This document shows, piece by piece, positions 90 to 5,350 of a stretch of DNA of 35,772 nucleotides. This stretch comes from a phage. The position numbers and the translations under genes were made by a program. The stretch lies in the NCBI GenBank assembly GCA_019566835.1, contig GCA_019566835.1_3045.2; one strand, given 5' to 3'. Under the pieces are notes generated by a model. It worked only from the letters and a program-made list of their open reading frames with translations, was not told where the DNA came from and did no database searches. The first letter of the stretch is position 1. Each line of letters begins with the position of its first letter.

Positions 90-3000
90 ATGGCTACTTT
101 AAAACAAATACAATTTAAAAGAAGCAAAACCGCAGGCGCGCGTCCTGCTGCTTCAGTATTAGCCGAAGGTGAATTGGCTATAAACTTAAAAGATAGAACA
201 ATTTTTACTAAAGATGATTCAGGAAATATCATTGACTTGAGCATTTCCACTGGCGGCAATATCAGTGGAAATATCACTCAAACTGGTGATTATTTACAAA
301 ACGGCACGTATAATCTTAATGGAAACCAGTTTGTTTATGCAGGAAAATACATTGAATTTTTACCTAAAACCGCTGGTAATGGTGCGTGGGCAAATCAACA
401 CCTCAATAAAGCTCCTATCTTTACAGATTTAAGTTCAACTACTTCTGTTTCAGAATATCATCCACTCATTAAGCAGCGTTATAAAGATGGGACTTTTTCT
501 GTTGGTACGTTAGTAAACGAAGGAAGTTTTAAAATTCATTATATTAATGAATCGGGAACTTCAAAATATTGGACATTTCGTAGAGATGGTGGATTTGTTG
601 TTGATACAGGAAGTTTGACAGTAACAGATGGAAATATTTCTGCCTCTGGTAATATTAATTCAGCTACTGGGGTAGTTTCTGCTCCGCAGATTAATACAAA
701 GACTATAGTTTTTGATACAAAAGCGTTCGGACAATATGATTCGCAGTCATTAGTTCAATATGTTTATCCTGGAACAGGTGAAGCAAACGGAATCAATTAC
801 CTTCGCAAATTCCGTGCTAAATCTGGTGGTACAATTTATCATGAATTAGCTTCTGCGCAAACCGGAAAAAGTGATGAACTTTCTTGGTGGACTGGTAATA
901 CAGCGGTTAATAAACAAATGGGCCTTCGCAATGATGGGTCTTTAGTACTACGACGTTCACTTGCAATTGGTACAATTACAACAGATGAAAACATCAATAA
1001 CTACGGTTCCACTGGAGCAATGGGCGAATGTTATATAGTTATTGGTGATGCATCAACAGGTTTATCATACAAAAAAACTGGGGTATATGACTTAGTTGCT
1101 AGTGGTCTTTCTGTAGCATCTATTACTCCTGATAGTTTCCGTAGTACGCGCAAAGCGATTTTTGGACGCTCGGAAGACCAAGGCGGTACGTGGCTTCTTC
1201 CTGGTCAAAACTCATCTCTTCTTTCAGTTCGTACTGAAGCTGACCAAAACAATAATGGAGATGGTCAGACACATATTGGCTATAATAGTAATGGTAAATT
1301 TTATCATTATTTTAGAGGCAGAGGAAGAATGGCCATTGGAATGGCCGAAGGACTTATTGTTGAACCAGGAATTTTAGATATTAAAACTGGTTCAAATACA
1401 TTAAGTTTGCGTGCTGATGGTACCGTCGCTTCTGTTCAAACATTAAAGCTTAATAATGGATTATATTTTAATAGCGATGGAACTAACGCTTCTCTAATTT
1501 TTAAAGCAGCTTCAGGTATTGATGGTACTAAACAAATACTTTGGGAAGGTGGTACTCGTGCTGGGCAGAATAAGAGCTATGTAACTGCTAAAGCTTGGGG
1601 AAATTCATTTAATTCATCTGGCGATCGTAATCGTGAAACGGTTTTTGAAGTATCAGATGGACAAGGATATTATTTTTATGCTCAACGCGTAGCTCCTGCA
1701 CCAGGTTCAACAACTGGTGCAGTTCAATTTAGAGTTGCCGGAGCATTATTAACTTCTGGCGGTATTACATCATCTGGTTCTATTGTTACTGAATCTAGCT
1801 TAGTTGCAAATAATGGATTATCTGTAAATGGACAAGCTAAATTTGGTGGAACAGCAAATGCATTAAGAATTTGGAATGCCGAATATGGCGCCATATTCCG
1901 TCGCTCAGAAACAGCATTGCACATTATTCCTACTCTTAAAGACCAAGGAGAAAATGGTGAAATAGGTAATCTTCGTCCATTGAGCATCTCACTTAACAAC
2001 GGTATGGTTCAAATGCGCCATTCTGTCACGTTAGGTGATGATGGTGCAGGCGGTAATATGGTGACGGTTGATAATGATTCTAAAGTTATAGTAATGACGA
2101 CTAATAGCCGTATTAGTCCTAACTTCCGTATGCAAATTGGACAGTCGTCTTATATTGATGTGGAATGTACTGATGCTGTGAGACCTGCTGGAGCCGGTTC
2201 TTTTGCTTCACAGAATAACGAAAACGTTCGCGCTCCGTTCTATATGAATATTGATAGAACAGATACAAGCACTTATGTTCCTATTGTGAAACAAAGATAC
2301 GTGCAAAATAATAGTTGCTATTCTATTGGTACTTTAATTAATGGTGGTAACTTTAGAGTTCATTATCATGAAGGTGGCGATGGCGGTTCTACAGGCGCAA
2401 TTATAAAAGATTTAGGATGGGAATTTAATAAAAACGGTGATTTTTATTCTCCTGGTAAATTAGGCGCTGGAAATATTAGAATAGGTACTGATGGTAATAT
2501 CACGGGTGGTTCTGGTAACTTTGCTAACTTGAATACAACTTTAAACCGTAAAGTTAATTCTGGTTTTATTACTTATGGAGCAACGGCAGGTTGGTACAAG
2601 TTTGCAACAGTAACAATGCCTCAAGCTACATCAACTGTTTCAATTACAGTCACCGGTGGAAATGGATTTAATTCTGGGTCATTTAATCAGTGTGCAATTT
2701 CTGAAATTGTTCTTCGTACAGGAAACAATACTCCTAAAGGATTAAATGCTGTTCTATATAGAAGAGGACTAAATTCATTTAGAGATATTGCTTGGGTTAA
2801 TACATCTGGTGATACATATGACATTTATGTTAATATGGGAACATATGCTAATCAGTTGATATTTAACTATAGTTCTGTTGATAACGCCACAGTTCAAATT
2901 ATTGGCGCATTCAGCTCAGCTCAAAATCCTGTTGATGCATTGCCAGAAACATATGTTAAAGGTCAGGTAGCAGATGTATTGACTAACTTAGTTGATTCTG

Positions 3001-3953
3001 GAAAAACGAAGCGTTTTGTTGCTGAATCTGAAATAGCTGTTAATAATCAAACTGGATTACGTATTACGAGTAACGGTGATAAATCTGGTTCAAATTCAGT
3101 ATTATTCAGAAATGATGGCGGTAGTTTTTATATTCTTTTAACAGATAAAAACGCAGCAGATGGAAATACGACTGCTACAGAAGGAGATTGGAATGGTAAA
3201 CGTCCTTTCCAAATTAATATGACTTCTGGTGAAGTAACATTTGGAAATAATATTAATATTTCTGGAAACGGAAGCATTAATTGGACAAAAGCCGGAGCAA
3301 ACCCTAGAAATATGAGAATATTTCATGCAGGTGATGCTTCTCGTGGTAACCGTATTGAAATCGCAGATGATACTAACTATATTGCTTACTTTGAAAAAAC
3401 TCCAGGTGGAGCTAACCGCTTTGTAGTAAATAATGCTACTGTAGCTGGTGTTAATCAAATGAATTCATTTGGTATTAACATCAATAACGCGCTTGGTGGA
3501 AATAGTATAACATTTGGTGATAGCGATACTGGTATTAAGCAAAATGGCGATGGATTATTAGACATATATGCGAACAACGTACAAGTATTCCGTTTCCAAA
3601 ACGGTGATTTGTACTCATACAAAAATATAAATGCTCCAAACGTTTATATTCGTTCTGATATTCGTTTAAAATCCAACTTCAAACCTATCGAAAATGCGCT
3701 TGATAAAGTTGAAAAACTTAACGGTGTCATTTACGATAAAGCTGAATATATCGGTGGAGAGGCAATTGAAACTGAAGCGGGTATTGTGGCTCAAACGTTA
3801 CAAGACGTTTTACCAGAAGCTGTCCGTGAAACAGAAGACAGTAAGGGTAATAAAATACTCACTGTTTCTTCTCAAGCCCAGATTGCTCTTCTGGTTGAAG
3901 CTGTGAAAACACTTTCTGCTCGTGTAAAAGAACTTGAATCTAAACTTATGTAA
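90..3953 (+). CDS. 37: Long tail fibre distal subunit gp37, T2-type with C-terminal intramolecular chaperone module
   Basis: 1287-aa ORF. N-terminus MATLKQIQFKRSK...LAEGELAINLKDRTIFTKDDSGNIIDL and internal blocks NAEYGAIFRRSE, AECTDAVRPAGAGSFASQNNE and KQRYVQ match the gp37 signature I recall from T4. Last ~99 aa (SDIRLKSNF...GVIYD...) resemble a self-cleaving fibre chaperone domain. Confidence 0.93.
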   Translation: MATLKQIQFKRSKTAGARPAASVLAEGELAINLKDRTIFTKDDSGNIIDLSISTGGNISGNITQTGDYLQNGTYNLNGNQFVYAGKYIEFLPKTAGNGAWANQHLNKAPIFTDLSSTTSVSEYHPLIKQRYKDGTFSVGTLVNEGSFKIHYINESGTSKYWTFRRDGGFVVDTGSLTVTDGNISASGNINSATGVVSAPQINTKTIVFDTKAFGQYDSQSLVQYVYPGTGEANGINYLRKFRAKSGGTIYHELASAQTGKSDELSWWTGNTAVNKQMGLRNDGSLVLRRSLAIGTITTDENINNYGSTGAMGECYIVIGDASTGLSYKKTGVYDLVASGLSVASITPDSFRSTRKAIFGRSEDQGGTWLLPGQNSSLLSVRTEADQNNNGDGQTHIGYNSNGKFYHYFRGRGRMAIGMAEGLIVEPGILDIKTGSNTLSLRADGTVASVQTLKLNNGLYFNSDGTNASLIFKAASGIDGTKQILWEGGTRAGQNKSYVTAKAWGNSFNSSGDRNRETVFEVSDGQGYYFYAQRVAPAPGSTTGAVQFRVAGALLTSGGITSSGSIVTESSLVANNGLSVNGQAKFGGTANALRIWNAEYGAIFRRSETALHIIPTLKDQGENGEIGNLRPLSISLNNGMVQMRHSVTLGDDGAGGNMVTVDNDSKVIVMTTNSRISPNFRMQIGQSSYIDVECTDAVRPAGAGSFASQNNENVRAPFYMNIDRTDTSTYVPIVKQRYVQNNSCYSIGTLINGGNFRVHYHEGGDGGSTGAIIKDLGWEFNKNGDFYSPGKLGAGNIRIGTDGNITGGSGNFANLNTTLNRKVNSGFITYGATAGWYKFATVTMPQATSTVSITVTGGNGFNSGSFNQCAISEIVLRTGNNTPKGLNAVLYRRGLNSFRDIAWVNTSGDTYDIYVNMGTYANQLIFNYSSVDNATVQIIGAFSSAQNPVDALPETYVKGQVADVLTNLVDSGKTKRFVAESEIAVNNQTGLRITSNGDKSGSNSVLFRNDGGSFYILLTDKNAADGNTTATEGDWNGKRPFQINMTSGEVTFGNNINISGNGSINWTKAGANPRNMRIFHAGDASRGNRIEIADDTNYIAYFEKTPGGANRFVVNNATVAGVNQMNSFGININNALGGNSITFGDSDTGIKQNGDGLLDIYANNVQVFRFQNGDLYSYKNINAPNVYIRSDIRLKSNFKPIENALDKVEKLNGVIYDKAEYIGGEAIETEAGIVAQTLQDVLPEAVRETEDSKGNKILTVSSQAQIALLVEAVKTLSARVKELESKLM

Positions 3954-3954
3954 A

Positions 3955-3972
3955 AGAGGGCTTCGGCCCTCT
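3955..3972 (+). promoter_or_regulatory. C(UUCG)G tetraloop stem-loop in the 37-38 intergenic spacer
   Basis: AGAGGGC-TTCG-GCCCTCT gives a 7-bp stem with a UUCG loop, immediately after the gene 37 stop and before the gene 38 SD. No clean U-tract follows. Confidence 0.45.
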
Positions 3973-3983
3973 AAGGATTTTTA

Positions 3984-4661
3984 ATGGCAATTGTAGGTGT
4001 TCCTGGCTGGATTGGTGAATCTGCCGTGAATGAAACTGGACAACGCTGGATGGATGCTGCAATGAAAGCAGTTCGCGTTTCAGTTCCTGGCTGGATGAGT
4101 TCAATGGCTGGACAATCTAAAGAAGTATATTATAGTGTTGGTGCTAGTAATTCTTATAATAAAGACACACTAATAAATTGGATAAAAGCTCAAGGCAGTA
4201 CTCCTGTTGTTATTACTATTACAGGAAATATTGTTTCTCAATCTACTGGTGTTCCATGCTTAGATTTTCCTAGCTCATTAACTAATGCGTATGTTACCTT
4301 AAATATTAATAGCGGGGTTCATGTATTAGGTCGGGGAGGAAATGGCGGAAGTAACTCTGCTGGTGGAGCAGGAGGAACTGCAATAAATAACGGAATTGGA
4401 ACTCGTTTAAGAATAAACAATAACGGTATTATTGGTGGCGGTGGCGGTGGCGGCGCTGGTGCTAGATACCATCCTTTCCCTCAAATGGATATGATATTTG
4501 GTGGCGGCGGAGGTCGTCCATTTGGCGCTGCTGGCAAATCTTCATATATTCAAGGTGGTACTGGAGGAACTGTTCACTCGGGTGGTGCTGCGGGTAAAGC
4601 TGTTACTGGTAATGCTCCAACTTGGACTAAAGTTGGTACAATATACGGTTCAAGAGTATAA
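3984..4661 (+). CDS. 38: gp38 tail-fibre adhesin, glycine-rich-motif type
   Basis: 225-aa ORF directly downstream of gene 37 with SD AAGGA. C-terminal half holds several glycine-rich motifs (GRGGNGGSNSAGGAGG, GGGGGGGAGA, GGGGGRPFGAAG, GGTGGT, GGAAG) typical of T2/T6-type gp38 adhesins. Confidence 0.8.
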   Translation: MAIVGVPGWIGESAVNETGQRWMDAAMKAVRVSVPGWMSSMAGQSKEVYYSVGASNSYNKDTLINWIKAQGSTPVVITITGNIVSQSTGVPCLDFPSSLTNAYVTLNINSGVHVLGRGGNGGSNSAGGAGGTAINNGIGTRLRINNNGIIGGGGGGGAGARYHPFPQMDMIFGGGGGRPFGAAGKSSYIQGGTGGTVHSGGAAGKAVTGNAPTWTKVGTIYGSRV

Positions 4662-4668
4662 TTTTTGA

Positions 4669-4678
4669 ATAAATATCC
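4669..4678 (+). promoter_or_regulatory. Possible late promoter for t (imperfect TATAAATA)
   Basis: GAATAAATAT lies about 20 nt upstream of the holin start; it matches the T4 late -10 consensus except at the first position. Confidence 0.25.
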
Positions 4679-4693
4679 TTAAAAGGAGGGTCT

Positions 4694-5350
4694 ATGGCAG
4701 CACCTAGAATATCATTTTCGCCCTCTGATATTCTATTTGGTGTTCTAGATCGCTTGTTCAAAGATAACGCTACCGGGAAAGTTCTTGCTTCCCGGGTAGC
4801 TGTCGTAATTCTTTTATTTATGATGGCGATTGTTTGGTATAGGGGAGATAGTTTCTTTGAGTACTATAAGCAATCAAAGTATGAAACATACAGTGAAATT
4901 ATTGAAAAGGAAAGAAATGCACGCTTTGAATCTGTCGCCCTGGAACAACTCCAGATAGTTCATATATCATCTGAGGCAGACTTTAGTGCGGTGTATTCTT
5001 TCCGCCCTAAAAACTTAAACTATTTTGTTGATATTATAGCATACGAAGGAAGATTACCTTCGACAATAACAGAAAAATCACTTGGAGGATATCCTGTTGA
5101 TAAAACTATGGATGAATATACAGTTCATTTAAATGGACGTCATTATTATTCCGATTCAAAATTTGCTTTTTTACCAACTAAAAAGCCTACTCCCGAAATA
5201 AACTACATGTACAGTTGTCCATATTTTAATTTGGATAATATCTATGCTGGAACGATAACCATGTACTGGTATAGAAATGATCATATAAGTAATGACCGCC
5301 TTGAATCAATATGTGCTCAGGCGGCCAGAATATTAGGAAGGGCTAAATAA
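4694..5350 (+). CDS. t: Holin T
   Basis: 218-aa ORF with strong SD AAGGAGGG. Sequence MAAPRISFSPSDILFGVLDRLFKDN... with one transmembrane segment and a large periplasmic domain matches T4 holin as I recall it, same length. Confidence 0.96.
   Translation: MAAPRISFSPSDILFGVLDRLFKDNATGKVLASRVAVVILLFMMAIVWYRGDSFFEYYKQSKYETYSEIIEKERNARFESVALEQLQIVHISSEADFSAVYSFRPKNLNYFVDIIAYEGRLPSTITEKSLGGYPVDKTMDEYTVHLNGRHYYSDSKFAFLPTKKPTPEINYMYSCPYFNLDNIYAGTITMYWYRNDHISNDRLESICAQAARILGRAK

Follow-up and report, generated by a model that had tools for sequence, protein, structure and literature searches.

Gene 38 in the window, a 35,772-nucleotide stretch of phage DNA (contig GCA_019566835.1_3045.2), encodes a receptor-recognising protein that lacks 38 internal residues, and this deletion, overlooked by the preliminary description of the locus, is the real peculiarity of gp38. 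Altogether, the data make it very probable that the 225-aa protein is a T2/T6-type adhesin allele which descended from a Tsx-class parent by a recent, in-frame, repeat-mediated deletion. In other respects gp38 is an ordinary member of its family with a sequence already public and annotated at NCBI, and its novelty is limited to this one deletion allele. In most T-even phages, host range is determined chiefly by gp38 adhesins, which are also targeted in receptor prediction and in engineering.

Family assignment and domain organisation of gp38

The gp38 sequence matched the Pfam family GP38 ('Phage tail fibre adhesin', PF05268, E=1.8e-59) and, with residues 1-42, Gp38_N (PF21721, E=5.7e-18); no Pfam family beyond these two was found for gp38, even at E<=10. 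The best PHROG was phrog_2056 ('tail fiber protein; host specificity', E=1.1e-89), and the PHROG matches were adhesin and host-specificity families. Only two solved structures were matched by the sequence, gp38 of phage S16 (6f45_D, E=1.7e-41) and the receptor-binding domain of PP01 gp38 (9v85, E=1.2e-25). Both were also retrieved when an AlphaFold2 (AF2) model of the 225-aa protein (mean pLDDT 88, pTM 0.83, 106 homologues) was compared with the PDB by Foldseek (6f45_D, E=8.8e-18, TMq 0.74; 9v85, E=5.9e-15), and this search gave no further match below E=1. By these relationships gp38 is a T2/T6-type adhesin, a monomer predicted to cap the trimeric gp37 of a Tequatrovirus; its presence in the virion and a role in adsorption would be expected from the family.

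T4 gp38 shares the gene name and the place downstream of g37, but it is an unrelated protein, to which no similarity of the window gp38 was detected (Pfam, E<=10). It is a tail fibre assembly chaperone and no virion component (PMC6851490). If gp38 of the window were a chaperone of this type, it would be absent from the virion, and some of its relatives are indeed annotated as 'distal long tail fiber assembly catalyst' or 'tail assembly protein'. These annotations are, however, legacy names carried over from T4. The chaperone reading is excluded by the Pfam matches, which comprise two adhesin families and nothing else, and by the agreement of both sequence and fold with the virion-bound adhesins of S16 and PP01; moreover, gp37 brings its own intramolecular chaperone domain. 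We give this reading practically no credence.

The N-terminal attachment domain was modelled by AF2 as three short helices (H10-18, H23-29 and H38-41), and the three conserved tryptophans of this domain dock on gp37 (PMC6851490). The central beta-helix fold of the solved adhesins was recovered with high confidence (pLDDT 92-97 at residues 41-120 and 97-98 at residues 131-150). S16 gp38 (PDB 6F45) and PP01 gp38 (PDB 9V85) have the same three-domain fold, consisting of attachment domain, beta-helix and polyglycine-II sandwich; their receptor is OmpC, and their sequence identity to the window gp38 is 37-40%. The specificity domain is incomplete in the 225-aa protein: the full domain has five GRMs and four HVSs (ten PGII helices, five distal loops), and four GRMs and three HVSs were found. 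The GP38 and PHROG matches were each split in two stretches, the best Pfam stretch covering profile positions 1-147 of 218. The assignment to the adhesin family stands despite the missing modules, because the remainder of the protein is identical to a bona fide member.

Nucleotides 4329-4628 correspond exactly to codons 116-215 of g38 (GRGGNGGSNSAGGAGGTAINNGIGTRLRINNNGIIGGGGGGGAGARYHPFPQMDMIFGGGGGRPFGAAGKSSYIQGGTGGTVHSGGAAGKAVTGNAPTWT). Glycine accounts for 35% of these residues (46% Gly+Ala) versus 9.6% of residues 1-115, and it is concentrated in the runs GGNGG (118-122), GGAGG (127-131), GGGGGGGAG (151-159), GGGGG (173-177) and GGTGG (191-195), plus GGAAG (200-204). These runs are not due to chance, because they are aligned with glycine-rich motifs that are conserved in Pfam GP38 and 6f45_D. 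The preliminary description had proposed an adhesin of the T2/T6 type with at least five glycine-rich runs in its C-terminal half, and on both points it is borne out, by the codon mapping for the runs and by the Pfam, PHROG, sequence and fold matches together with the gene order g37-g38-t for the protein type. Alignment to characterised gp38 adhesins and structure prediction were both carried out: the glycine motifs align with those of the solved adhesins, and a T4 chaperone match was not found. It had further held that the variable segments between the runs determine receptor specificity in T2/T6-type phages, and a role of these segments in receptor choice has been established by published work (PMC3157838, PMC12032242, PMC12892980, bioRxiv 10.64898/2026.04.02.716166).

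Table 1. Features of the gene 38 locus and positions of the PP01 distal loops on the parent protein
Feature	Position	Strand	Basis, or state in the window
Gene 37, long tail fibre distal subunit, 1287 aa; trimeric shaft predicted to be capped by gp38	90..3953	+	ORF; Pfam Gp34_trimer and Peptidase_S74; annotation of relatives
gp37 C-terminal intramolecular chaperone domain, aa 1189-1246	3654..3827	+	Pfam PF13884 Peptidase_S74, E=3.5e-15
GC-rich 7-bp hairpin with UUCG tetraloop, then AAGGATTTTT; between g37 stop and g38 ribosome-binding site	3955..3972	+	Terminator-like site; RNA fold -13.4 kcal/mol, z = -1.85
Gene 38, adhesin-type receptor-recognising protein, 225 aa	3984..4661	+	ATG ORF; NCBI EHY1459917.1
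N-terminal attachment domain, aa 1-42, with W9, W22 and W37	3984..4109	+	Gp38_N match
GRGGNGG-SNS-AGGAGG, first glycine hairpin (putative PGII helices 1-2) with distal loop A	4329..4376	+	Sequence; alignment to PP01 loop-A W119-I124
GGGGGGGAG - ARYHPFPQMDMIF - GGGGGRPFG: GRM2, HVS2 (putative loop B, T6-like PFPQM motif), GRM3	4434..4526	+	Alignment; T6 HVS2 Q167/M168 (PMC3157838)
Deletion junction, single GCTGCTGGC copy (Ala-Ala-Gly)	4527..4535	+	DNA alignment; repeat positions
KSSYIQGGTGGTVHS (HVS4, putative loop E), then GGAAGKAV (GRM5)	4536..4604	+	Alignment to PP01 loop-E N225-S231; AF2 confidence low, 58-67
Gene t, holin, 218 aa; canonical downstream neighbour of g38	4694..5350	+	Pfam Phage_holin_T, E=1.1e-116
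PP01 loop-B (by alignment)	Parent residues about 162-171		Retained in window
PP01 loop-C (by alignment)	Parent residues 185-190		Deleted in window
PP01 loop-D (by alignment)	Parent residues 206-210		Deleted in window
PP01 loop-E (by alignment)	Parent residues 228-234		Retained in window

The 114-bp deletion and its parent allele

In a DNA alignment, g38 was identical at 678 of 678 nt to the gp38 gene of phage JLBYU24, which encodes 263 aa, with one gap of 114 nt. The block missing from the window is bounded in the 792-nt parent gene by two copies of GCTGCTGGC, a 9-bp direct repeat at gene positions 544-552 and 658-666. This repeat is exact over 9 nt and 13/15 identical when extended, and the spacing of the repeat family to which it belongs (D7) is exactly 114 nt. 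A single copy of the two is kept in the window. At the protein level the loss amounts to 38 aa, parent residues 182-219 (AAGAAGGGAAAASAGTISAPGKGTVSGVHYGGNGGDLG) or, equivalently, 185-222. Since both repeat copies lie in the same codon phase, the in-frame outcome was automatic and gives no evidence of selection. The absence of any substitution relative to the parent means that the deletion is very recent and that there was no time for compensatory change. The 114 bp would most likely have been lost between the two GCTGCTGGC copies by replication slippage or by microhomology-mediated recombination. Deletions between short direct repeats are well documented in T4, where they were reportedly described by Pribnow et al. 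in 1981 and by Singer and Westlye in 1988.

The preliminary description had looked for novelty in the inter-glycine segments, and here it does not hold: the retained DNA is 100% identical to that of JLBYU24 and the retained protein to the specificity domain of phages AV109, AV114 and AV115. Novel hypervariable segments were rejected as a source of the peculiarity, every retained residue being equal to that of JLBYU24.

When positions 3700-4900 of the window were compared by megablast, JLBYU24 (99.8%) and Kha5h (99.4%) each matched in two pieces, spanning 1315 nt for a query of 1201 nt, and two pieces were seen in all matches listed. A tblastn search against 50,697 phage records gave at least 80% query coverage in 38 of them, all spanning 768-789 nt (255-262 codons) at 72-84% identity; spans of this size at this identity therefore represent gapped alignments. 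The exact match of the g38 protein at NCBI, EHY1459917.1 ('receptor-recognizing protein [Escherichia coli]'), belongs to a 90% cluster of 81 members, in which the 225-aa protein comes from one contig only; besides this form, the 15 cluster members listed comprised 13 proteins of 261-263 aa and one fragment of 65 aa. The deletion was found neither in the 38 listed phage records nor in the other cluster members read (40/81 read), and a megablast of the 3' part of g38 did not find the deleted allele in complete E. coli genomes, where only matches of about 60 nt on plasmids of 107-121 kb appeared. A 26-mer across the junction had no match in viral, metagenome or genome collections, of which the viral negative is weak because the parent junction was likewise absent from the viral collection.

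Homologues retrieved by a homologue search were mostly 253-280 aa long, which makes 225 aa abnormally short. The spacing between GGRPFG and GGAAGxAV was 18 aa in the window protein versus 36-63 aa (mostly 52-63 aa) in 87 other homologues with both motifs in this order, to be taken as a rough outlier check, since the motif regex was crude, failing on 40/134 sequences, giving the reversed order in 6 more and possibly misplacing the C-terminal motif in the '36 aa' group.

The parent allele is found in several phages. Kha5h gp38 (ANZ51625.1) differs from the JLBYU24 protein (UGO55595.1) by one residue, G128R, and gp38 of AV109/AV114/AV115 (WPK33670.1) differs from it only at residues 48, 49 and 52, being identical from residue 100 to the end (100-263). 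Experiments have shown that AV114 and AV115 require Tsx (PMC10844046). Additionally, T6 and the parent share the HVS2 core PFPQM and the HVS3 pattern TIS.PG.G.V.G. The parent allele is a Tsx-class adhesin, because AV114 and AV115 depend on this receptor and because the T6 motifs are shared; the deleted allele very probably derives directly from the Tsx-specific adhesin of JLBYU24, Kha5h and AV109/114/115.

In these five phages g38 occupies the same genomic position, between g37 and t. They carry residues 182-219 (HVS3 and GRM4), which the window gp38 lacks, and the genome around the window gene is a different mosaic, with a gp37 at most 93% identical to that of any phage record. T6 gp38, on which the model of five GRMs and four HVSs was built (Trojet et al. 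2011, PMC3157838), belongs to the same family with the same domain order, and Tsx is the receptor assigned to both T6 and the parent. Its identity to the window gp38 is, however, only about 50-57%, and it has all five GRMs and four HVSs, whereas HVS3 and GRM4 are missing together from the window allele.

Two further observations concern the distribution of this allele. One gp38 specificity domain occurs in two genera, Mosigvirus (AV109/114/115) and Tequatrovirus (JLBYU24, Kha5h), an example of the horizontal exchange already known for this adhesin module. A near-identical gp38 is present in the BASEL phage TadeuszReichstein.

Extent of the deletion in the specificity domain and its consequences

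The lost residues were placed on the domain by two schemes. In the classical scheme, based on the T6 positions of HVS2 (Q167/M168) and HVS3 (G208) from PMC3157838 plus protein alignment, residues 182-219 comprise HVS3, GRM4 and the first three residues of HVS4. In the structural scheme the parent was aligned to PP01 gp38 with HMMER, the chain offset of 199 being verified on the loop-A residues WAAGAI, and the loop definitions of PMC12892980 were applied (Table 1). S16 gp38 has ten PGII helices, and its five distal loops join the pairs 1-2, 3-4, 5-6, 7-8 and 9-10 (PMC6851490). Judged from these alignments, the deletion would take roughly PGII helices 5-8, about four of the ten, and would link helix 9 to the proximal turn that follows helix 4. 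Besides its attachment domain and beta-helix, the 225-aa gp38 would keep loops A, B and E and about six PGII helices, whereas S16 and PP01 gp38 have ten helices and loops A to E. The direction of the chain is presumably preserved, because an even number of antiparallel elements is lost.

Does such a shortened adhesin work? Assembly of the phage contig, which comes from a bacterial isolate, gave the deleted allele as the consensus, and this implies that the population was replicating. In T6, amber mutants of gp38 form normal-looking virions that do not adsorb and make no plaques (PMC3157838), and because such virions cannot adsorb, a dead allele should not become the consensus. There is not quite an even chance, in our estimate, that the protein is functional with loops A, B and E on a PGII core of six helices, its specificity either retained (Tsx) or altered, the latter making the deletion a host-range mutation; the phage would then have multiplied on the very E. 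coli isolate with which it was sequenced. Functionality is also favoured by the even count of antiparallel PGII elements lost by alignment, which keeps the chain direction, and by the attachment and beta-helix domains, which are intact and modelled with pLDDT 87-98. Receptor switching through small changes in HVSs is known; in RB51/RB68, one substitution in HVS3 (Q206L) is enough to change the receptor between OmpF and OmpW (bioRxiv 10.64898/2026.04.02.716166).

Mutational data on related adhesins point in the other direction. No T6 phage was ever recovered in which HVS1, 2 or 3, or GRM2, 3 or 4, had been deleted singly (PMC3157838), so that deletions of HVS3 only or GRM4 only, the two modules missing here together, are non-viable. 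In PP01, point mutations in loop D likewise abolish infectivity, Tyr209 of this loop being essential (PMC12892980). The HVS3 substitution Q206L of RB51/RB68 is counted on this side too. The model is also less certain where the chain has been rejoined: AF2 confidence over residues 161-200 was 77, 74, 58 and 67 in the deleted form versus 87-97 across the equivalent region of a full-length relative (58-74 versus 90-97 when residues 171-200 are considered), AF2 thus being unsure over residues 181-200, and the fit to the crystal structures became worse, from an rmsd of 3.3 A to 7.0 A for 6f45_D and from 2.2-2.6 A to 6.8-7.0 A for 9v85. The complete lack of compensatory substitutions, which marks the event as very recent, weighs against a functional protein as well, as does the failure to find a second independent occurrence in the phage records, the cluster members read and the 26-mer collections. 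Other public gp38 ORFs have gaps bounded by glycine motifs, some of which lose beta-helix strands and are unlikely to be functional. It is accordingly quite possible, at somewhat less than even odds, that the deletion is real but inactivating, the contig representing a defective allele from a single burst, phenotypic mixing with wild-type, or contaminant DNA that does not replicate. This reading has to contend with the expectation that a phage unable to adsorb should not become the consensus of a culture, and with the rest of the window, where the ORF layout is as expected for a T-even genome segment.

That the true gene encodes 263 aa, and that the gap arose as an artefact of assembly or sequencing or through the assembler's choice of a minority variant, appears improbable. 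The deletion is carried by a single contig, from a draft E. coli isolate assembly, the DNA of the glycine motifs is internally repetitive (12 repeat families), and similar gapped gp38s occur in automated assemblies. The flanking repeat is, however, exact over 9 nt only, and no exact repeat of the parent gene is longer than 14 nt, both lengths being far below assembler k-mer sizes; an artefact is unlikely because a repeat of this length should be too short for a k-mer assembler to collapse. Furthermore, a gap of exactly one repeat spacing that stays in frame would be the signature of a biological slippage deletion.

If the shortened gp38 works, the Ala-Ala-Gly repeat would be a natural joining point that permits the loss of two loops along with four PGII helices, a property that could inform the design of smaller or re-targeted adhesins, and slippage at glycine-motif repeats would yield length variants besides the module swaps already described. 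We propose with more reserve than the readings of a functional or an inactivated protein given above, and only tentatively, that the 225-aa form is a naturally occurring functional minimal gp38 that, having lost four of ten helices and two of five receptor loops in a single slippage event, still folds and caps gp37, with its receptor specificity retained or changed. The sandwich would then be modular at the level of helix-hairpin pairs, and the view that no GRM or HVS is dispensable, drawn from deletion analysis of T6, would need qualification. Should the protein be dead, the locus would simply hold a defective allele in a draft assembly.

The tail-fibre locus and other gp38 genes

The locus has the canonical T-even gene order g37-g38-t, with 30 nt between the g37 stop and g38 and 32 nt between g38 and gene t. 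The first 25 kb of the window were 94-96% identical, over 89-96% of the query, to Tequatrovirus genomes, e.g. Sf24 and teqsoen (megablast). For gp37, the best phage records covered 88-98% at only 86-93% identity, and coverage of at least 80% was reached in 6 of 709 matching records. In sequence identity it is gp37, rather than gp38, that diverges most within the tail-fibre locus. The Peptidase_S74 domain of gp37 presumably cleaves itself off before gp38 caps the fibre, as expected for its family. The hairpin between g37 and g38 may serve to stabilise the mRNA or act as a weak terminator.

Internal gaps starting and ending in glycine-rich motifs were also observed in several public gp38 ORFs of 167-234 aa (P0047, P0055, P0058, P0088, P0102/P0105, P0109 and P0111). 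They suggest recurrent motif-to-motif deletions in the gp38 family, or assembly errors, the source being unvalidated automated assemblies. One of them, the 212-aa P0102, lies on a Logan SRR25052219 contig and is gapped relative to relatives of 260 aa. Directly after it follows a second ORF, of 170 aa, which also matches the Gp38_N attachment domain, suggesting two tandem gp38-like genes at 3001-4168 of this contig. Finally, the 107-121 kb plasmids were found in 16 complete E. coli genomes (e.g. NZ_CP117972.1 and NZ_CP010153.1), where they carry a 'receptor-recognizing protein' gene that is 90-95% identical to the last ~60 nt of g38 only; these plasmids may be phage-plasmids with a gp38-like C-terminus.
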